UHGV virus genome: UHGV-0851987
Origin: a virus
Direction: 5' to 3' (one strand)
DNA: 31,064 nt
Shown here: positions 1,418-29,754 of the stretch, piece by piece
Layout of the letters: every line of letters starts with the position of its first letter
Numbering within the stretch: the first letter of the stretch is position 1
Position numbers and translations under genes: made by a program
The notes under the pieces: model-generated
Seen by the model: the letters and a program-made list of their open reading frames with translations, nothing else
Told to the model about the DNA's origin: nothing
Database searches by the model: none

Positions 1418-1750
1418 TCACCCCTCATACAGTGGTTTGCTGCCTAATTTCATTTTCTGGCGACCAACACAAGTCACACCCATTTCACTGCGTGGCTTGC
1501 TGTACCATGTGCGCTGATTCTTGCGCTCAATACGCTGCAGGTTGCTTTCAATCTGTTCGTGGTATTCAGCCAGCACTGTAAGGTCTATCGGATTCAGTGC
1601 GCTTTCTACTCGTGATTTCGGTTTGCGATTCAGCGAGAGAATAGGGCGGTTAACTGGTTTTGCGCTTACCCCAACCAACAGGGGATTTGCTGCTTTCCAT
1701 TGAGCCTGTTTCTCTGCGCGACGTTCGCGGCGGCGTGTTTGTGCATCCAT
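1418..1750 (-). CDS. N: Transcription antitermination protein N (lambda type)
   Basis: Translation from the internal Met begins MDAQTRRRERRAEKQAQWKAANPLL, the arginine-rich boxB-binding motif of lambda N. AGGAGA RBS upstream of the ATG at 1748-1750. The track ORF (to 1801) is an N-terminal over-extension. Confidence 0.9.
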   Translation of the reverse strand: MDAQTRRRERRAEKQAQWKAANPLLVGVSAKPVNRPILSLNRKPKSRVESALNPIDLTVLAEYHEQIESNLQRIERKNQRTWYSKPRSEMGVTCVGRQKMKLGSKPLYEG

Positions 1751-1922
1751 CTGGATTCTCCTGTCAGTTAGCTTTGGTGGTGTGGTAGGTGGGAGACCCA
1801 TTTCGACCTGCTTCGGCCGACTTCAATTCGGCAATAGTTCCGCAGGCCTCGCCGCTTTACGTGCGACATATTCCCATCCATGAACCCTTCACCACACCCC
1901 AAAGCCTTCTGCTTTGAATGCT

Positions 1923-1953
1923 GCCCTTCTTCAGGGCTTAATTTTTAAGAGCA
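1923..1953 (-). promoter_or_regulatory. nutL site (boxA plus boxB)
   Basis: Minus strand reads TGCTCTTAA (boxA, complement of 1945-1953), a spacer, then GCCCTGAAGAAGGGC (boxB hairpin, complement of 1923-1937). This matches the lambda nutL arrangement as I recall it. Confidence 0.8.
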
Positions 1954-3141: not shown

Positions 3142-3173
3142 AGCTCTTACACATTCCAGCCCTGAAAAAGGGC
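3142..3173 (+). promoter_or_regulatory. nutR site (boxA plus boxB)
   Basis: AGCTCTTACA (boxA-like, 3142-3151), spacer CATTCCAG, then GCCCTGAAAAAGGGC (boxB, 3159-3173). Matches lambda nutR as I recall it. Confidence 0.85.
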
Positions 3174-3728: not shown

Positions 3729-4620
3729 CATATCTAATCTAGCCGAAGCCAGAGAGGCCAGAAGGCTACAACAACCGCATCAAAGCAGCGGTAAGGGGTA
3801 TGCCTTGCTGCACCGTAAAATTATGGATGTGCCGTTTTACAAGGACGCAGAAGCTGCGCATCTGTGGATTCACTTAATCCTCAAAGCAAAGCATACGCCT
3901 GAGTATGTAATGACTGACGCAGGAGAAATTCTGGTAGGCAGAGGGAAGCTACTTGGCGGTAGAAACTCTCTGGCGTTTGAAACAGGACTCAAACCAGATC
4001 GCGTTCAGTACCTGCTTAGAAAGTTCAAAAAACTCGGCATGATTGACTGGGTTTCACACGGTAAATTTTCAGTTTTCTCGGTAGAGAAATATGACGATTA
4101 TCAGTCAAATTTTGTACCAGCAGATTACCAGCAAATTACCACCTCAAAGCCAGCAATACCAATGCCTGTAAGCAATACTGTACCAGCAGATTACCAGCAA
4201 ATTACCACAGATAAAGAATATAATAATATTATCTCTAATACTGACGTATTAGAGAGTGCCACAGCAGACAAAAAGTCTGACAAGAAAAAACCTTCCGTCA
4301 GCTGTCAGGATGTTGTCGATGCTTACCACGAAATCCTTCCTGAAGCGCCAAGAATCCGCGCACTGAATGACAAGCGTAAAAACCAGATCCGAACGTTCTG
4401 GCGCAAAGCCGGAGTGATAACCCGCCAGCTTGACGGGCATGGGTTCACGATGCAGGACTGGAGAAATTATTTGAGCTACGTAGGCGAAAATTGCCGATGG
4501 ATGTTCGAAGAACGCCCAAACCATCAACGCGGAACCGTCTGGCACAAAAAGGGATTTGATTTCCTGCTTAACGACAATACCTACCTGAAAGTTCGTGAGG
4601 GTGAACACGATGACCGATAA
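3721..4620 (+). CDS. Replication initiation protein (O-like replisome organizer)
   Basis: ORF in track with RBS GGAGAAAGG before the ATG at 3721. It sits immediately upstream of, and overlaps, the helicase gene. The origin-like iterons lie inside the coding sequence. Confidence 0.85.
4114..4245 (+). repeat. Putative replication origin: two 29-bp direct repeats (iterons) plus AT-rich tract
   Basis: GTACCAGCAGATTACCAGCAAATTACCAC occurs at 4114-4142 and again at 4180-4208, each with an internal ATTACC sub-repeat. Followed by AGATAAAGAATATAATAATATTATCTCTAATA. The arrangement parallels ori-lambda inside gene O. Confidence 0.6.
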
Positions 4621-6046
4621 TTTTTATGCGCCGCCCCATAGCATCGAGGCAGAGCAGGCGGTGATTGGTGGATTGCTTCTGGATGATGACAGCAGTGAGC
4701 GCGTCCAGAAAGTTCTGGCGATGCTGAAGCCTGATTCATTTTACAGCCGACCACACAAAATCCTTTTCGAAGAAATAACCAGAATGCACCGGGAGCAAAA
4801 GCCAGTAGATGGCCTGACGCTTTTCGATGAACTGGAGCGTAAATCGTTAACGGCGTCTGTTGGCGGTTTTGCTTATATCGCTGAGATCGCAAAGAACACG
4901 CCAAGCGCAGCAAACATCGTTGCCTATGCAATGCAGGTTCGTGAAACCGCAATGGAACGCTACGCCATCAACCGCATGACTGAAGCGACGGAATTGCTCT
5001 ATTCCCGCAACGGAATGACTGCAACGCAGAAGTACGAAGCTATTCAGTCGATTTTCACGCAACTGACAGACCATGCAAAAACCGGATCGCGTCGCGGCCT
5101 TCGCTCATTTGGTGAGGTCATGGAAGACTGGGTTAGCGACCTTGAGAAGCGATTTGACCCGTCAGGCGAACAACGAGGAATGAGCACAGGGATCCCATCG
5201 CTGGACAGGATGCTGTCACCGAAAGGTCTGGTGAAAGGCTCTCTGTTTGTCATTGGCGCTCGCCCTAAGATGGGGAAAACGACGCTATACAGCCAGATGG
5301 CAATCAACTGCGCAGTGCATGAGAAAAAGCCCGCTCTGATGTTCAGCCTTGAAATGCCCGGTGACCAGATACTGGAAAAACTGGTAGGGCAGAAGTCAGG
5401 TGTTAACCCAAATATTTTTTACCTTCCAGCGACAAATGACGCTGATGACGGCTATCAGGGTGATTACGATGGTGACTTCAACAGGGCGATCGAAACAGCA
5501 AATCGCTTGAGTGAAATCGACCTGCTTTACATCGACGACACGCCGGGATTATCTCTGGCTCAAATCGTCAGTGAAAGCCGTCGAATCAAGCGAGAAAAAG
5601 GATGTGTTGGCATGATTCTGGTCGATTACCTGACACTAATGACCGCTGAGAAGGCCGATCGCAACGACCTTGCTTACGGCATGATCACCAAAGGACTGAA
5701 GAATCTTGCCAAAGAGCTTGATTGCGTTGTTGTGCTTCTGACACAGCTTAACCGCGCACTGGAAAGCCGAACCAATAAACGCCCATTACCAAGTGACTCA
5801 CGAGATACAGGGCAGATTGAACAGGATTGCGATTATTGGGTGGGGATCCATCGTGAAGGTGCTTTTGATGACAGCGTTCCTCCTGGTGAAACCGAACTAA
5901 TCCTTCGCCTCAATCGTCATGGCAATACCGGCACGGTGTATTGCATTCAGGCAAATGGCGCTATTTATGACACAGACCAACAGTCTGCTGAAATGCGCCG
6001 CCGTGAACGCGAGGAACCGCAGTCCAAGAAGAAAGGAGGATTCTGA
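4610..6046 (+). CDS. Replicative DNA helicase, DnaB family
   Basis: DnaB N-terminal domain (HSIEAEQAVIGGLLLD), Walker A GARPKMGKTT and DnaB-type C-terminal motifs. Start at ATG 4610 after GAGGG; the track start at 4595 is a short over-extension. Confidence 0.9.
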   Translation: MTDNFYAPPHSIEAEQAVIGGLLLDDDSSERVQKVLAMLKPDSFYSRPHKILFEEITRMHREQKPVDGLTLFDELERKSLTASVGGFAYIAEIAKNTPSAANIVAYAMQVRETAMERYAINRMTEATELLYSRNGMTATQKYEAIQSIFTQLTDHAKTGSRRGLRSFGEVMEDWVSDLEKRFDPSGEQRGMSTGIPSLDRMLSPKGLVKGSLFVIGARPKMGKTTLYSQMAINCAVHEKKPALMFSLEMPGDQILEKLVGQKSGVNPNIFYLPATNDADDGYQGDYDGDFNRAIETANRLSEIDLLYIDDTPGLSLAQIVSESRRIKREKGCVGMILVDYLTLMTAEKADRNDLAYGMITKGLKNLAKELDCVVVLLTQLNRALESRTNKRPLPSDSRDTGQIEQDCDYWVGIHREGAFDDSVPPGETELILRLNRHGNTGTVYCIQANGAIYDTDQQSAEMRRREREEPQSKKKGGF

Positions 6047-6315
6047 TGAATAAAAAACAATTAGCCATTCTCGAAAAGGCATGGGATGCACAAATATCAT
6101 GCGCTTTGAAAGAACAGGCACTACCAATAATCCAGACCAAATCGAAAATAGCCAGGCAGTTATGCGATGACGGATTCCTGAACGAAGTTGAGATTACGCG
6201 CCAGATGGTAACGTTCAAAGGGTATGAGATAAATCATCATGGTATAGCGGCGTATTGCTCCCATCTTCCTGATGACGTTGACATTGATGAAATGGAAAGG
6301 GAGATGAAGCAATGA
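6046..6315 (+). CDS. Hypothetical protein (89 aa)
   Basis: ORF in track. Translationally coupled (TGATG) to the helicase, with AAAGGAGGA RBS inside the helicase 3' end. Confidence 0.6.
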   Translation: MNKKQLAILEKAWDAQISCALKEQALPIIQTKSKIARQLCDDGFLNEVEITRQMVTFKGYEINHHGIAAYCSHLPDDVDIDEMEREMKQ

Positions 6316-6340: not shown

Positions 6341-6372
6341 AGGCCTGCTGGTAATCGCAGGCCTTTTTATTT
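6341..6372 (+). terminator. Intrinsic terminator (tR2-like position)
   Basis: AGGCCTGC-N8-GCAGGCCT hairpin (6341-6364) followed by TTTTTATTT. Confidence 0.6.
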
Positions 6373-6387
6373 GGGGGAGAGTAAATC

Positions 6388-6594
6388 GTGGCTGAGTTTA
6401 TGCTCGTCGCACTCAAATGCGTTGGCGTTGGATGGATTCTTCTGTCGTTTTTTATTGTTCTGCATAGCTACATTCGTCTTGTGAATGACGGTAAAGACCC
6501 ATGGTATACGTTGTTTGGCGCTGCATTTGTCTGGGTGATTATCGGTGTTATGCCTGTCGCTGTAGCAAAAATGGCGTGGCGTTTTGTTAGTTGA
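6388..6594 (+). CDS. Small membrane protein (68 aa, two predicted TM helices), GTG start
   Basis: ORF in track. GGGGGAGAG RBS 6 nt before GTG 6388. Two hydrophobic segments (VALKCVGVGWILLSFFIVL and LFGAAFVWVIIGVMPVAVA). Confidence 0.5.
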   Translation: MAEFMLVALKCVGVGWILLSFFIVLHSYIRLVNDGKDPWYTLFGAAFVWVIIGVMPVAVAKMAWRFVS

Positions 6595-6601
6595 GGTAAC
6601 G

Positions 6602-7048
6602 ATGAAGCAAATATACATGCTTCGCAACGAAGCAATCAGAAACAACGCCATAGACGCAATACTCTCACTTCCGATCGACGACAAGTCACCTCACGAAGTC
6701 CACATTAAAGAACCAAAGCGGAGCAATCCTCAAAACCGCCTTATGTGGGCGTTATTGCAGGACGTATCGCGTCAGGTGCTCTGGCATGGAGAGAGACTTG
6801 CGCCGGAGGACTGGAAAGATCTGTTCACTGCCCTGTGGCTTAAGACCAAAAAACTGGAGCAACGAAGTGCGCCTGGTATCGACGGTGGCGTTGTTATGCT
6901 TGGCGTGCGTACCAGCAAAATGCGAAAGGCCAGTATGACTGAGCTTATCGAAATCATGTTCTGGTTCGGCTCAGAGCGCAACGTGCGGTGGAGTGATGAC
7001 TCCCGGAGAGAGTATGAATGGTCACAACGAAAAGGGAGAGCTGCATGA
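6602..7048 (+). CDS. ninB: NinB-like recombination protein
   Basis: Resembles my recollection of lambda NinB (shared motifs QNRLMWALLQDVSRQV.WHG, GVRTSKM, ERNVRWSD). Start at ATG 6602 after GAGG. Confidence 0.8.
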   Translation: MKQIYMLRNEAIRNNAIDAILSLPIDDKSPHEVHIKEPKRSNPQNRLMWALLQDVSRQVLWHGERLAPEDWKDLFTALWLKTKKLEQRSAPGIDGGVVMLGVRTSKMRKASMTELIEIMFWFGSERNVRWSDDSRREYEWSQRKGRAA

Positions 7049-7572
7049 CTATCAAATCAAATACCCCGGCACACGACAAGGACTGCTGGAGAACGCCGCT
7101 TTGGCTTTTTGATGCACTGGATATTGAGTTTGGATTCTGGCTGGATTCGGCAGCGAGCGACAAAAATGCTCTGTGCGCTCACTGGCTAACTGAGGCTGAC
7201 GACGCGCTAAATTCTGAGTGGATAAGCCACGGTGCAATCTGGAATAACCCACCGTACAGCAATATCAGGCCGTGGGTGGAAAAAGCCGCTGAGCAGTGCA
7301 TACAACAGCGACAGACGGTAGTGATGCTTGTGCCAGAGGATATGTCTGTCGGATGGTTCAGCAAGGCTCTGGAGAGTGTTGACGAAGTTCGTATTATCAC
7401 TGATGGACGGATTAATTTTATCGAACCATCGACAGGGCTGGAGAAGAAGGGAAACAGCAAAGGTTCCATGCTGCTGATTTGGCGACCGTTCATCAGTCCT
7501 CGACGGATGTTTACTACCGTATCCAAAGCGGCATTGATGGCGATCGGGCAGGGCGTCAGGAGGGCGGCATGA
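7045..7572 (+). CDS. DNA N6-adenine methyltransferase (phage Dam-like, orphan)
   Basis: NPPY catalytic motif (IWNNPPYSN) and the overall phage Dam family pattern. ATGA overlap with the ninB stop; GGGAGAG RBS. Confidence 0.8.
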
Positions 7573-7745
7573 GACGACAGCGACGAAGTATCACCGACAT
7601 CATCTGCGAAAACTGCAAATACCTTCCAACGAAACTCTCCAGAAATAAACGCAAGCCAATCCCCAAAGAATCTGACGTAAAAACCTTCAACTACACGGCT
7701 CACCTGTGGGATATCCGGTGGCTAAGACATCGTGCGAGGAAATGA
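7569..7745 (+). CDS. ninE: NinE-like protein
   Basis: Translation [58 protein letters not shown] resembles lambda NinE as I recall it. ATGA overlap with the methyltransferase stop. Confidence 0.7.
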
Positions 7746-8149
7746 CAATGCTTTTAATTCAACCTGGATTTGGACTTGGCATCAAAAAAGGCCACATGTT
7801 TGGCGAGAAAGAGTCACAACGAAAAATGGTGTCTATCCGGTTGCCATTTATCAGTATTTGTTGGCTAAACAGGGAGGCAACAAATTATTGGTATACATGC
7901 GCCAGAGCAGCATTTAACGACCCTGACTGGTTTGTGAAAAACCACCACGCAGTTCGTCAGGCAAAGAGAAAGGCCAAAATGACATACATGAAGGCGTATC
8001 AAAAAGCATGGAAAGAACACCGCGATCGATACCAACAAGACATGGAAAAGCTTGAATCAGAAAACATGGAATTAAGACGAAAGCTCGGTGAAGCAAAACG
8101 AGACATTGATGCTTACAAGCGACTTTTTAATGGTGAAAGCCATGCTTAG
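7742..8149 (+). CDS. Hypothetical protein inserted between ninE and ninF (start uncertain)
   Basis: ATGA overlap with the ninE stop. The C-terminal 56 aa ([50 protein letters not shown]) are coiled-coil-like and have their own RBS (AGAGAAAGG) before the ATG at 7979, which may be the true start. Confidence 0.45.
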
Positions 8150-8318
8150 CCCATCCCAATCCCTTCAATACCAGAAAGAAAGCGTCGAGCGGGCTTTAAC
8201 GTGCGCTAACTGCGGTCAGAAGCTGCATGTGCTGGAAGTTCACGTGTGCTCCGATTGCTGCGCAGAACTGATGAGCGATCCGAATAGCTCAATGTACGAG
8301 GAAGAAGACGATGAGTGA
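8142..8318 (+). CDS. ninF: NinF-like protein
   Basis: Translation [58 protein letters not shown] resembles lambda NinF as I recall it. Start at the internal ATG 8142 after GGTGAAAG. Confidence 0.7.
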   Translation: MLSPSQSLQYQKESVERALTCANCGQKLHVLEVHVCSDCCAELMSDPNSSMYEEEDDE

Positions 8319-9063
8319 GTTAATGAATGGCAATGCCATCAAAATGACAAGCATTGAAATCGCTGAGTTGGTGGGTAAGCGTCATGACAATGTGAAACGT
8401 ACCATCGAAACGCTGGCTAAAAATGGTGTTATCCGGCTTCCTCAAATTGAGGTTTCCGAAAGAATCAATAACTTAGGGTTCAATGTTCAGTACGAGCATT
8501 ACGTCTTCGAGGGCGAACAAGGTAAGCGAGACAGTATTGTCGTTGTTGCCCAGTTGTCGCCAGAGTTCACCGCTCGTCTTGTTGACCGTTGGCGAGAGCT
8601 TGAAGAAACTGCGGTTAATATCCCCAAAACGCTACCAGAAGCATTGCGCCTTGCTGCTGATCTTGCTGAGCAGAAAATGCAACTGGAAAACCAGCTCGCA
8701 ATTGCCGCACCTAAAGTTGAGTTTGCCGATCGCGTTGGCGAGGCCAGTGGAATTTTGATTGGAAACTTTGCAAAGGTTGTTGGTATTGGTCCGAACAAAC
8801 TGTTTGCGTGGATGCGCGATCACAAAATCCTTATTGCTTCAGGTTCCCGGCGCAATGTGCCAATGCAGGAATATATGGATCGCGGCTATTTCGCAGTGAA
8901 AGAAACAGCGGTCAACACAAATCACGGAATACAGATATCGTTCACCACAAAAATCACCGGGCGTGGTCAACAGTGGCTGACCAGAAAGCTGCTCGATAAC
9001 GGAATGCTGAAAGTAACAGGCGGACGGCTTGGAATAAAAATCACCGAACTGGAGAACGCATGA
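8311..9063 (+). CDS. Phage antirepressor, Rha-type N-terminal domain plus KilAC-type C-terminal domain
   Basis: N-terminus MTSIEIAELVGKRHDNVKRTIETL is typical of Rha-family regulators; the C-terminal half is typical of KilA-C antirepressor domains. The start may be 8311, 8323 or 8344. Confidence 0.75.
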   Translation: MSELMNGNAIKMTSIEIAELVGKRHDNVKRTIETLAKNGVIRLPQIEVSERINNLGFNVQYEHYVFEGEQGKRDSIVVVAQLSPEFTARLVDRWRELEETAVNIPKTLPEALRLAADLAEQKMQLENQLAIAAPKVEFADRVGEASGILIGNFAKVVGIGPNKLFAWMRDHKILIASGSRRNVPMQEYMDRGYFAVKETAVNTNHGIQISFTTKITGRGQQWLTRKLLDNGMLKVTGGRLGIKITELENA

Positions 9064-9248
9064 ACGCCACAATTCAAACGATACCAGAGCTTCTTATCCA
9101 GACACGAGGCAATCAGACCGAAGTGGCGAGGATGCTTTCCTGCGCAAGAGGAACAGTGCTCAAGTACAACCGAGACAGCAAAGGCGATCGTCACGTAATA
9201 GTTAACGGCGTCCTGATGGTCAAACAGGGAAAGAGGGGAAGACGATGA
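9060..9248 (+). CDS. ninH: NinH-like protein
   Basis: Core GNQTEVARMLSCARGTVLKY and VNGVLMV resemble lambda NinH. ATGA overlap with the antirepressor stop. Confidence 0.7.
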   Translation: MNATIQTIPELLIQTRGNQTEVARMLSCARGTVLKYNRDSKGDRHVIVNGVLMVKQGKRGRR

Positions 9249-9733
9249 GCATAAGAGAACTAAACCTCACCAAAGAGCAGCACGAGTGGCTGAATGGCTG
9301 GCTTGAACTGTGGGGAGCATGGGTTTATTCAGGCCGCCTGGAAAAGCGCATGAGCAGCGTAATAGCGAAGTTCATGGAGAGCGTAGAGCCGGGAAGAGTT
9401 ATGACAAGGCCAATGTGTAATGATGATGATGGAATGTTGATTTCTCAGGTCGTCGATTCCGTCATGTACATTGACAAGAAAGCCTTTGGCATCCTCCTCA
9501 GCTACTACGCTCATGGATCTTCCAAGCATGCCATTGCATCTTACTATCATCGTGTCGCAAGACCTCGCAAGATGTTATGCCGGGGCGGCGGGCGTATTCA
9601 AAAACCATCGCTCGCAACCTGTCGCCGGGAAGTTGACGAAATCCTCAATGCTTCGTTGTTTATGATTTACCCGGTTCTGGATAGTGCGTTTAAAAATCGG
9701 AAACGTGTAGAGAAAATTAAACATGTAGCATAG
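9245..9733 (+). CDS. Q: Late-gene antitermination protein Q (phage 82 / QuuD-like family)
   Basis: WGAW ... RP.C.DDD motif pattern typical of the Q82/QuuD family. Position immediately upstream of the late promoter region and lysis genes. GAGGGGA RBS; ATGA overlap with ninH. Confidence 0.75.
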   Translation: MSIRELNLTKEQHEWLNGWLELWGAWVYSGRLEKRMSSVIAKFMESVEPGRVMTRPMCNDDDGMLISQVVDSVMYIDKKAFGILLSYYAHGSSKHAIASYYHRVARPRKMLCRGGGRIQKPSLATCRREVDEILNASLFMIYPVLDSAFKNRKRVEKIKHVA

Positions 9734-9824: not shown

Positions 9825-9896
9825 GGGTCAGTCGTATAAAGGTCATTACGGAAGGCTGTTAACCTTCTTATCGTGGTTCGAGTCCACGCTGTCCCG
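9825..9896 (+). tRNA. tRNA-Asn (anticodon GUU)-like, with one acceptor-stem mismatch
   Basis: Hand fold: acceptor GGGTCAG/CTGTCCC (U-U mismatch at 4:69), D-loop with GG, anticodon stem GAAGG/CCTTC with loop CUGUUAA, T-arm CGTGG-TTCGAGT-CCACG, discriminator G, encoded CCA at 9897-9899. Confidence 0.5.
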
Positions 9897-9904
9897 CCAA
9901 ATAT

Positions 9905-9977
9905 GCTGGTTTAGCTCCAATGGTAGAGCAGTCGCCTTGTAAGCGAATGGGTAGCGGTTCAAGTCCGTTAACCAGCA
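9905..9977 (+). tRNA. tRNA-Thr (anticodon UGU)
   Basis: Hand fold: acceptor GCTGGTT/AACCAGC, U8 A9, D-arm GCTC-CAATGGTA-GAGC, anticodon loop CUUGUAA, T-arm AGCGG-TTCAAGT-CCGTT, discriminator A, encoded CCA at 9978-9980. Confidence 0.65.
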
Positions 9978-10222
9978 CCATAACTGAGCCGTAGCCACTT
10001 GCTATCCTGGATTCATCAGTGATAGTTACGCTGCGGCCTTCTACGCATGACCTTCGTGAAAGCGGGTGGCATGAGGTTGCCCTAACAACCTCCTGCCGTT
10101 TTGCCCGTGCATATCGGTCACGAACAAATCTGATTACTAAACACAGTAGCCTGGATTTGTTCTATCAGTAACCGACCATATTCCTAATTAAATAGAGCAA
10201 ATCCCCTTATTGGGGGTAAGAC

Positions 10223-26332: not shown

Positions 26333-28372
26333 ATGACAGACATTACAGCCAATGTTGTAGTAAGTATGCCATCGCAACTCTTCACTATGGCGCGTTCTTT
26401 TAAAGCAGTTGCCAATGGCAAAATTTATATCGGGAAGATTGACACTGACCCTGTAAATCCAGAAAACCAGATTCAGGTTTATGTGGAGAACGAAGATGGT
26501 TCTCACGTTCCTGTATCGCAACCAATCATCATTAATGCTGCTGGTTACCCGGTATATAACGGGCAGATTGCCAAATTCGTAACTGAGCAAGGCCATTCTA
26601 TGGCTGTTTATGATGCGTATGGTGCACAGCAGTTCAAATTCCCAAATGTGCTGAAGTATGATCCGGATCAGTTTGAAGCAAGATTATATGATGATGTTTG
26701 TTCTGGAAATTTTCCCAGCAAGATGGGATACATACACAACACTTTGCATGCAACATTGCGCACATTGCAACATAAGCTTGACGATATACTATCTGTTAAA
26801 GATTTTGGCGCCGTAGGAGATGGTTTAGATCATCCTCTTAGCGAAAAGTTCAGCACATTAAGTGCTGCTCAGATGGTTTATCCATTTGTTACCGCATTAA
26901 CACAAACCCAAGATTACGCTGCGATACAAGCTGCGATTAACACTGCTAAATTTATTAACGCAGGCGTGTTTCTGCCATCTGGCCAATACGTGGTAAATAC
27001 AGAAATTGTGGCGGATTATGCTCTTAGCTTATATGGCGAAGGCAGCGGTGGTTTGCGTGACATAGCCTCTACAGGTCACGAGGAATCGCCTGTTCGTGGG
27101 TCTGTAATATTGTCTAAAGTAAACCCCGGAAGAACGTTGTCAATTAATAGCACTACAGGTTTTTCATTCGGTATGACATTGCGCGACTTCGCAATATGGG
27201 GTGTGCAAGACTCTTGTGACGTGGGCCTGTATACTAACCATGTAGGTTGGACAGGGATTATGTCCGGTTTAAATATCCAACGCTTCCCAAATCAAGCGTG
27301 GGAGGTGGGCTATATTCAAGATACATACGTGAACAACTGCACTTTTTTGCTCAGCGGTTCTCAAGATAAACCTGCAGTGCACTTCCTTAACGACTCTAAC
27401 TATATCTATTTCAATGGTTGTCATTTTGAGGATACTCCTTACTTTATTAAAATGACTAATGCGTGGAACATAGCGTTCCATCATTGCCATTTCGAAGTAG
27501 CCCGTACAGTAAACGGCTCACTGGATGATAGATTTTTTTACCGAAGCGCACCCATTGACCTTGGTGCAAGCTATAGAATTCAATTTTCAGAAAATACATT
27601 CATACCGACCGATGTAGGTTACCTGTCGTCGAAACTAGATGCACCAAGAAACCAGGTTCCGTATTTTATGACGGGTTCTGGAGGTAACAGCATTAGCTTC
27701 TCTGGGGATATATTCCTGGCACCAGAAGGTAGTGTAGATGCTATGTATCTGGATTGCACAGCTGTTAGTGTATTGGGGTGTAAATTTATACGAATGTCTC
27801 CCAGCCGCGAATGTATACATATCACCGACGGACATGTAAGTAATTGCGAGATAGGGATTTCAGCCGCCGAGGACCTAACAAAATTGTACGGTATCTATGT
27901 CGGCAAAGGCGGTGTTTCAAACTGTACCTTTGGTTTCTATGAGTCTGACTCCGGTGGGAAACGAAATGAAGGCGCGCTATTATTTGGAGAGGGGAAGGCT
28001 AACGGTAATTCATACCCTGACGATGACCGTGTGTATATTTTTCTGGATTCACCAACGAAGGTTGATGGTTACGACGGTGGAGATGCAAGATTCATTACCT
28101 TAACAGAAAGCACTATTGTAGATTTAACAAAAGTTCATCCATCAACTCATTATAATATAATCGGCTCTTCGGTAGCTATTACTAACATTTATGGTGCTCC
28201 ACTAGGCAGAGACCTGATTGTACGGGTGTCTAGTGGTGATCATTCTGGTGTTAAGTACGTAGCCGGTTCTGTCGAAACTAATGGAGCTACTGATTGGGCC
28301 GCGGTGCCAAGCACAAACGCGATATTCAAATGCATTAAAGGACCGGCTGGTAAAGTGATGTATCAGTTATAA
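26333..28372 (+). CDS. Tailspike protein: P22/Sf6-type N-terminal head-binding domain plus divergent receptor-binding domain
   Basis: N-terminal roughly 115 aa ([61 protein letters not shown] ... VLKYDPDQ) match the conserved podovirus tailspike head-binding domain. The remainder is consistent with a beta-helix enzyme domain (my inference). GGAG RBS. Confidence 0.9.
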
Positions 28373-28428: not shown

Positions 28429-29754
28429 TTATCTTTGAGTTCTCGCAAATCTAAGGCATAGCAACACAAAAGAGAATGCCACTAAAAATACAGACATATC
28501 AACAACATAAGCAATGCCAACAGGAGGCGATAACAGTAGCTGCAAAGATCTAATATAAAAAACAGCCAAAAACGAAGATGTAAATGGAAGCATGCATCCT
28601 GAGTTTTTATACTTTGCTTTTGAAATCCTTCCTATTATAAAACCTATAATAGACGTCATAATTAAGCTTCCAATAAATCCAAAAAACACATATCCTGCAA
28701 GATCAAAGTGACTTGTTGGACCTCTTGCAATATCATCCCATGGGTACCATTGTTTCCATATCAATCTACCTACATCATTATCAAAATAGTTATATGAGAA
28801 CACGGTTTTTACAAATCCATTTCCACCTATATATCCAAATAGCTGAATAAAAGGGTTTTCAACAACTATTCTATTGATAGTGTCGTAAGGCAGAGAAAAA
28901 TAGTAAGCATCTCCATTTGCAATTATTCTCATAAGGAATAGCTCAAATATAACAGGCAAGTCTGTATACTGAGAACTGGTATAACCTATAGATTCAGATG
29001 TAAACGTCAAAATATAAAGAACATATGCAATCATGGCTGAAAAAGATACGAGACTGATTGCCAAGAACTTTAAATTTATTCTTGGAGACACACCTGAATA
29101 TATATATATTGCCGCTATTGATACTAGCGCGTGTTCAAGAAGAGAGAACTTAGCACCTGACACAAAAGACGCAATAACAGCCACTAAAATTGCAAAAAAT
29201 ATAATAATTGCTCTATTTAACTTATTTTTTGTTTTGTATATATTTATAGCCAGCATAGCTGACAATAACAATCGCACAACATCTAGTATTCTTACAATTA
29301 CTCCAAGACCTTTATTTGCCTCAAACCTTGATTCACCAAACGAAGAGAATGAAACATTTAATAAATAGTACGCTGTTAATACAACATACATAACAAAAAT
29401 AATCTTAAATGAAAATTTATAGTTGCTGTCTACCTCTCTGAAAAGAGCGTTTCTAAGACCAGCTATTGGCTTTATGTTTAGACTAAATGAAAATCTCCAT
29501 GTTATAACAAGGATAATAAAGTTAAGTAGTACCATTATGGCTAGGTAATCGTCTATGTACCCGTAAAGATATAGAATTATGACAACTGAATATGCAGTTC
29601 CAGAACCGAAGGCAAAAAAGTAGTGCGCTGGATCTATTATTCCATAGGTTGTTTTTCTTATTGCTTTGTAGCATAAGAACGCGCAAAGAAAGGTTAATAG
29701 CATGTAACCAATCCAGTGTGTGAATATAAAACTGAAAAATTCACTATCGCTCAT
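28429..29754 (-). CDS. Polytopic inner-membrane protein, candidate O-antigen polymerase (Wzy/EpsG-like) serotype-conversion moron
   Basis: 441-aa ORF with roughly 10-12 hydrophobic segments and high F/I/Y/L content. Visibly AT-rich DNA compared with the rest of the window. Located between tailspike and integrase, where P22/Sf6-type phages carry O-antigen-modifying genes. Lacks the acyltransferase-3 signature expected of an Oac-type acetylase. The function is inferred. Confidence 0.7.
   Translation of the reverse strand: MSDSEFFSFIFTHWIGYMLLTFLCAFLCYKAIRKTTYGIIDPAHYFFAFGSGTAYSVVIILYLYGYIDDYLAIMVLLNFIILVITWRFSFSLNIKPIAGLRNALFREVDSNYKFSFKIIFVMYVVLTAYYLLNVSFSSFGESRFEANKGLGVIVRILDVVRLLLSAMLAINIYKTKNKLNRAIIIFFAILVAVIASFVSGAKFSLLEHALVSIAAIYIYSGVSPRINLKFLAISLVSFSAMIAYVLYILTFTSESIGYTSSQYTDLPVIFELFLMRIIANGDAYYFSLPYDTINRIVVENPFIQLFGYIGGNGFVKTVFSYNYFDNDVGRLIWKQWYPWDDIARGPTSHFDLAGYVFFGFIGSLIMTSIIGFIIGRISKAKYKNSGCMLPFTSSFLAVFYIRSLQLLLSPPVGIAYVVDMSVFLVAFSFVLLCLRFARTQR

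Follow-up and report, generated by a model that had tools for sequence, protein, structure and literature searches.

A Dam-family adenine methyltransferase gene with predicted GATC specificity in the nin region of a P22-like lambdoid phage

Why a methylase with the same specificity as the host Dam enzyme is so widespread among enterobacterial phages is a general question, and the function of phage Dam enzymes was described in 2020 as still poorly understood, in a paper that lists HP1 among the phages with Dam-like genes (PMC7556043). The reference enzyme for the gene analysed here is M.EcoVT2Dam, the product of the dam gene of VT2-Sakai (BAA94133), which according to PMC6602927, citing Radlinska & Bujnicki 2001, "is known to target 5'-GATC-3'". 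This gene is also present in 933W, Phi24B, HK97 and many Stx phages. In the host, GATC methylation was found at 99.9% of the sites in two E. coli strains (PMC6602927). Phages P22, L and lambda depend on host Dam, and the DNA in their virions is methylated only in part, "possibly because replication outstrips modification" (PMC8022706). The nin regions of lambda and P22 follow the same logic as the locus described below, with transcription from pR, nutR, N antitermination and packed genes joined by ATGA junctions, and such junctions are a general trait of nin regions in all lambdoid phages (PMC8022706).

We analysed a stretch of 31,064 nucleotides from the virus genome UHGV-0851987, hereafter the window, which represents most of the genome of a P22-like lambdoid phage. 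The best overall matches of the window were to Shigella phage Sf6 (78% covered, 95% identity), Escherichia phage vB_EcoP-683R2 and HK620. A rightward operon contains the cro/cII region, O, a DnaB-like P gene (4595-6046), two small ORFs, ninB and the methyltransferase gene, here called dam, and is followed 3' of dam by ninE, an uncharacterised ORF, ninF, a Rha/KilAC antirepressor-like gene, ninH and Q (Table 1). Located on the same strand between P and Q, 3' of nutR and of a terminator-like hairpin, in a genome with an N-like gene, dam is thus part of a lambdoid nin region. The antirepressor-like gene between ninF and ninH (8311-9063, plus strand) matched PF03374 (1.5e-32) and PF09669 (7e-09). 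Directly 3' of Q are genes for tRNA-Asn(GTT) (9825-9899) and tRNA-Thr(TGT) (9905-9980), both on the plus strand; Stx phages have tRNA genes at the same position, 3' of Q. Outside this region, an ORF of 441 aa with a hydrophobic N-terminal stretch (28429-29754, minus strand) has the tailspike gene (26333-28372) on one side and the integrase gene on the other. It gave no Pfam or PADLOC match, and its single match was to phrog_14022 (unknown function). P22-like phages usually carry O-antigen conversion genes at this place.

Table 1. Features of the dam locus and of the putative N/nut system in the window
Feature	Position	Strand	Basis
N-like antiterminator ORF	1418-1801	-	phrog_271, anti-termination protein N-like, 4.5e-28
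Lambda-type boxB of nutL	1923-1937	-	exact match, none expected by chance
Lambda-type boxB of nutR, GCCCTGAAAAAGGGC	3159-3173	+	exact match, 0 expected by chance
Terminator-like hairpin, tR2-like position	6341-6364	+	8 pairs, 6 of them G-C, then T-run TTTTATTT
ninB, Orf-family recombination mediator, 5' neighbour	6602-7048	+	PF05772, 1.6e-48; phrog_72
Shine-Dalgarno-like GGGAGAG 5' of dam	7034-7040	+	last base 4 nt and GGAG core 6 nt from start
dam, 175-aa phage N6-adenine DNA methyltransferase gene	7045-7572, including stop codon	+	PF05869, TIGR01712, phrog_111, VT2-Sakai identity, dN/dS
ATGA overlap of dam start and ninB stop	7045-7048	+	ATG 7045-7047 and TGA 7046-7048, read from sequence
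Motif-I-like segment W32-L-D-S-A-A-S38, presumed AdoMet-binding loop	7138-7158	+	conserved columns
Catalytic motif IV, N68-P69-P70-Y71	7246-7257	+	sequence; invariant in 30 homologues
Shine-Dalgarno-like AGGAGG 5' of ninE start	7558-7563	+	read from sequence
ATGA overlap of ninE start and dam stop	7569-7572	+	ATG 7569-7571 and TGA 7570-7572, read from sequence
ninE, 3' neighbour	7569-7745	+	PF05322, 6.7e-43
Q antiterminator, distal end of nin operon	9245-9733	+	PF06530, 8.8e-25

The ATGA overlaps by which an earlier note on this DNA had linked dam to ninB on its 5' side and to ninE on its 3' side are both present. This coupling is nothing special to dam, as it is shared by nin regions generally. 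A longer reading frame starting from the in-frame ATG at 7018 was rejected since the N-termini of the homologues align with the start at 7045, and homologues of 175 aa form clusters of thousands of sequences, which likewise favours this start. We also considered an antisense ORF of 174 aa (7179-7703, minus strand) that extends over dam and ninE and is also open in VT2-Sakai. The pattern of substitutions argues against it: the differences from VT2-Sakai change 8 aa in the antisense ORF, compared with 2 aa in dam and 1 aa in ninE, and it is very probably non-coding. The databases also hold fusion ORFs, such as a Dam-NinE fusion of 233 aa with 41 member sequences and others in which Dam is joined to NinB, Q, RusA or CII-type domains. 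These presumably originate from frameshifts at the ATGA junctions, or are artefacts of assembly or gene calling.

The dam product is a full-length member, above the curated cut-offs, of both Pfam PF05869 (Dam; 1.3e-64, a score of 217 bits where 28 is required, with profile positions 1-167 of 169 aligned) and NCBIfam TIGR01712 (3.5e-79, 264 bits where 97 is required, with all positions 1-165 aligned), the latter being an equivalog model named "phage N-6-adenine-methyltransferase". It also matched the DNA methyltransferase family phrog_111 in PHROGs (9.3e-88), and its best match in PADLOC was "orphan methyltransferase" (oMTase; 6e-19). In an alignment of 30 homologues with identities down to 58%, the NPPY tetrapeptide, which conforms to the (N/D)PP(Y/F/W) pattern of motif IV, and 47 other columns were invariant. 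An N6-adenine methyltransferase with an NPPY motif had been proposed before, and this assignment is upheld by the two profiles and by the motif at residues 68-71. Three residues of the motif-I-like segment (L33, D34 and A36) were also invariant in the alignment, and in an AlphaFold model the segment forms a low-pLDDT loop after the first strand; we tentatively assign it as motif I, the presumed AdoMet loop.

The model, based on the 30-sequence alignment, was of moderate quality (pLDDT 75, pTM 0.78), with pLDDT values below 50 for residues 34-42 of the presumed cofactor loop, and has the class I (Rossmann-like) fold of AdoMet-dependent methyltransferases. Neither the single protein nor the 30-sequence profile gave a meaningful match in sequence searches against the PDB, and the PF05869 Dam family is without a solved structure that is detectable by sequence. 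The dam product consists of one class I methyltransferase domain, is minimal in size and lacks a separate target-recognition domain. It does not belong with the host-type Dam enzymes, such as E. coli Dam and T4 Dam, which have a separate recognition domain.

The closest counterpart is M.EcoVT2Dam, to which the dam product was identical at 173 of 175 residues with no gaps. The two genes are of equal length and occupy the same slot between ninB and ninE with 4-base overlaps on both sides, whereas their carriers differ: a P22-like podovirus (Sf6/HK620-like Lederbergvirus) here and Stx-converting phages in the case of M.EcoVT2Dam. The two substitutions, Q16R and V60I, are in columns that vary freely among the 30 aligned homologues. 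Since M.EcoVT2Dam, with 99% identity, is reported to be GATC-specific, the adenine of GATC is predicted with high confidence, by homology, to be the target of the enzyme, which revises the earlier statement that the target could not be predicted.

Some small phage adenine methylases have other or relaxed specificities, and non-specific enzymes from phages or prophages are on record (PMC3299994; the prophage OS31 enzyme, PMC7556043). With its 175 aa, single domain and no recognisable target-recognition domain, the dam product could in principle be one of these. However, the 99% identity is to a GATC-specific enzyme, both substitutions are located at variable positions, and strains with identical copies of dam showed no unexplained m6A motif in methylome studies (PMC6602927), so that we consider a target other than GATC very improbable. 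The non-specific methylases Hia5/Hin1523 were considered as kin of dam and dropped; PMC3299994 does not mention VT2, HP1, T1 or PF05869.

To place the gene among its relatives, we compared nucleotide sequences and counted copies in genomes. The dam genes of the window and of VT2-Sakai differ at 14 nucleotides (about 2.7%), almost all of which are synonymous, and the sense frame appears to be under purifying selection (dN/dS about 0.06 at a dS of about 0.11). Of the 5426 complete E. coli genomes, 1566 (about 29%) carry copies with at least 95% identity, up to five per genome, and among the matches listed these are annotated as "phage N-6-adenine-methyltransferase" and located between NinB and NinE. 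The ninB-dam-ninE stretch matched 402 phage records at the DNA level, while 2157 phage records encode a relative at the protein level, with hosts that include Vibrio, Klebsiella, Gordonia and Lactococcus.

The ninB-ninE junction in nin regions of the lambda/P22 type is a site at which the cassette content varies. In Salmonella phage vB_SosS_Oslo, the match to the ninB-dam-ninE stretch is split into two pieces, and the matching stretch is annotated as NinB, DNA methyltransferase, NinC (PAPS-reductase-like), NinD and NinE, a gene content which illustrates how cassettes build up in the slot. In the close relative vB_EcoP-683R2, by contrast, ninB is followed by ninX and there is no methylase. The dam gene is thus a mosaic module of this P22-like (Sf6/HK620-like) phage and is dispensable, being absent from so close a relative.

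This dispensability, together with the truncated and fused versions of dam in the databases, would fit a gene that is decaying or inactive and is carried along without a function. Against such a reading stand the low dN/dS ratio, the fact that every catalytic and conserved column is intact in a protein that spans both curated profiles at full length, and the retention of copies with at least 95% identity in more than a quarter of the complete E. coli genomes. We therefore regard loss of function as extremely improbable.

As for a restriction partner, the ORFs of the window that were scanned matched phage families or nothing, and Pfam, PHROGs and PADLOC assigned none of them to a nuclease or restriction family, in agreement with the earlier note, which had seen no adjacent restriction endonuclease gene. 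The immediate neighbours of dam are ninB and ninE, and the small ORFs nearby (6046-6315, 6388-6594 and 7748-8149) fall in conserved phage families of unknown function. The enzyme is accordingly an orphan methyltransferase.

This P22-like phage appears to use an N/nut system of the lambda type, because it has exact matches to the lambda-type boxB in both nut sites, an N-like gene and, separating the P-distal ORF from the nin genes, a strong hairpin in a tR2-like position. The translation of the N-like ORF contains the arginine-rich sequence MDAQTRRRERRAEKQAQWKAAN, and the hairpin probably acts as a terminator. Because dam is located 3' of both the lambda-type nutR and this hairpin, its expression from pR is expected to require N and to be delayed-early, not immediate. 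Early expression after infection or induction had been suggested for this gene; transcription from pR under these circumstances stands, while the positions of nutR and the hairpin point to the delayed-early class. The identical gene of Phi24B was expressed in lysogen cultures, and its level changed significantly on induction (PMC3342100).

One explanation for the presence of dam is that it encodes a dedicated anti-restriction methylase, the main role of which is to guard incoming or replicating phage DNA from host restriction endonucleases. The gene is solitary, conserved and predicted to be expressed with the early genes, GATC methylation blocks enzymes of the MboI/DpnII type (the inhibition of MboI by m6A is used as an assay; PMC7556043), and the occurrence of family relatives in phages of many host genera makes a general defensive use plausible. 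However, in the usual hosts, E. coli, Shigella and Salmonella, GATC is already methylated by the host-encoded Dam, for which reason restriction of unmethylated GATC would be unlikely as the main threat. A GATC methylase duplicates the host enzyme, so that its ordinary anti-restriction value in the usual Enterobacteria hosts would be limited. In addition, a methylase made after N-dependent read-through cannot guard the incoming genome in the first minutes, and enzymes of the DpnI type target methylated GATC. We consider it rather unlikely that defence of this kind is the main role.

In our assessment it is highly probable that dam encodes a solitary enzyme of the phage Dam family, essentially equivalent to M.EcoVT2Dam, with GATC as its predicted target, and that it is an N-dependent nin cassette which may serve to top up methylation. 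The gene is a mosaic cassette inserted between ninB and ninE in the pR operon, where it would be translated within a tightly packed series of genes. Transcription would reach it only after N-mediated antitermination past the tR2-like terminator, and as a consequence the enzyme would act during phage DNA replication. The most likely outcome would be that phage DNA becomes fully methylated at GATC when the limited host Dam falls behind. Full methylation would shield the DNA from enzymes that cut unmethylated GATC and from MutH nicking of un- or hemimethylated sites, and would also offer protection on transfer into hosts that are poor in Dam or restrict GATC. The gene, its motifs, family, context, conservation and prevalence are direct results of the analysis, and its target, the timing of expression and the benefit to the phage are inferred. 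As an account of the role, a top-up of methylation while phage DNA replicates fast is no less plausible than anti-restriction in the classical sense.

A related possibility, which we hold tentatively, is that the extra Dam has a housekeeping or regulatory role other than defence and keeps the GATC sites of the phage or prophage fully methylated, which could prevent cleavage by MutH, adjust promoters or packaging steps that respond to methylation, or make lysogeny more stable. Host Dam is reported as required for stable 933W lysogeny (Murphy et al. 2008, as cited in PMC3342100), it has been suggested by the authors of PMC3342100 that phage Dam may supplement the host enzyme, and it is documented that Dam leaves the virion DNA of P22, L and lambda undermethylated (PMC8022706).

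The GATC content of the window bears on the same possibility. GATC was depleted, with 81 sites observed against 120-140 expected (O/E 0.58, second-order Markov expectation), which agrees with the suggestion that Dam methylation is selected against in prophage genes (PMC6602927). The depletion was strongest in the lysis region (O/E 0.25) and the morphogenesis region (0.48), whereas it was absent from the immunity region (0.98); CTAG (0.36) and GGCC (0.53) were also depleted in the window. The depletion was similar in phages with dam (O/E 0.58-0.59) and in a relative without it (0.45), indicating that carriage of the methylase is not accompanied by a visible relaxation of selection against GATC, and for the same reason the depletion has no power to separate the models for the role of the gene. 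Other observations weigh against a housekeeping role: the GATC positions across the window formed no cluster at an obvious regulatory site, dam belongs to an operon of the lytic cycle that is repressed in a stable lysogen, and the gene is missing in vB_EcoP-683R2.

Two further ideas seem improbable to us. The first is that the selected role of the enzyme is unconnected with restriction, and that saturating GATC methylation during replication could blind MutH-directed mismatch repair and so favour recombination together with the adjacent ninB; the second is that, at the levels at which the phage expresses the enzyme, methylation extends beyond GATC. If the blinding of MutH were true, the ninB-dam pair would be a "mosaicism-promoting" module for diverged phage genomes.

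Overall, the dam gene of this phage is an unremarkable representative of a phage gene that has already been characterised and is routine among lambdoid phages. Gene, family and nin-region location are all on record, as is the specificity of an enzyme with 99% identity, and routine annotation pipelines already label it "phage N-6-adenine-methyltransferase". For the redundancy with host Dam, this copy is as good a test case as any other, and not a better one.

More distant members of PF05869 and TIGR01712 are the Dam enzymes of T1 and HP1, and the record for VT2-Sakai dam notes a similarity to HP1 Orf13 and T1 M.T1. T1 is a virulent phage. T1-like phages of the Drexlerviridae matched the dam product at about 32-36% identity (E-values of 1e-18 to 1e-20). 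The enzymes of T1 and HP1 differ from the dam product in their low sequence identity, and also in that their genes are located outside a nin region. The alpha-class enzymes E. coli Dam and T4 Dam share with the dam product the chemistry, the class I fold and, by prediction, the target (G-m6A-TC). The GATC specificity common to the phage enzyme and the host-type Dam enzymes is best read as convergence.
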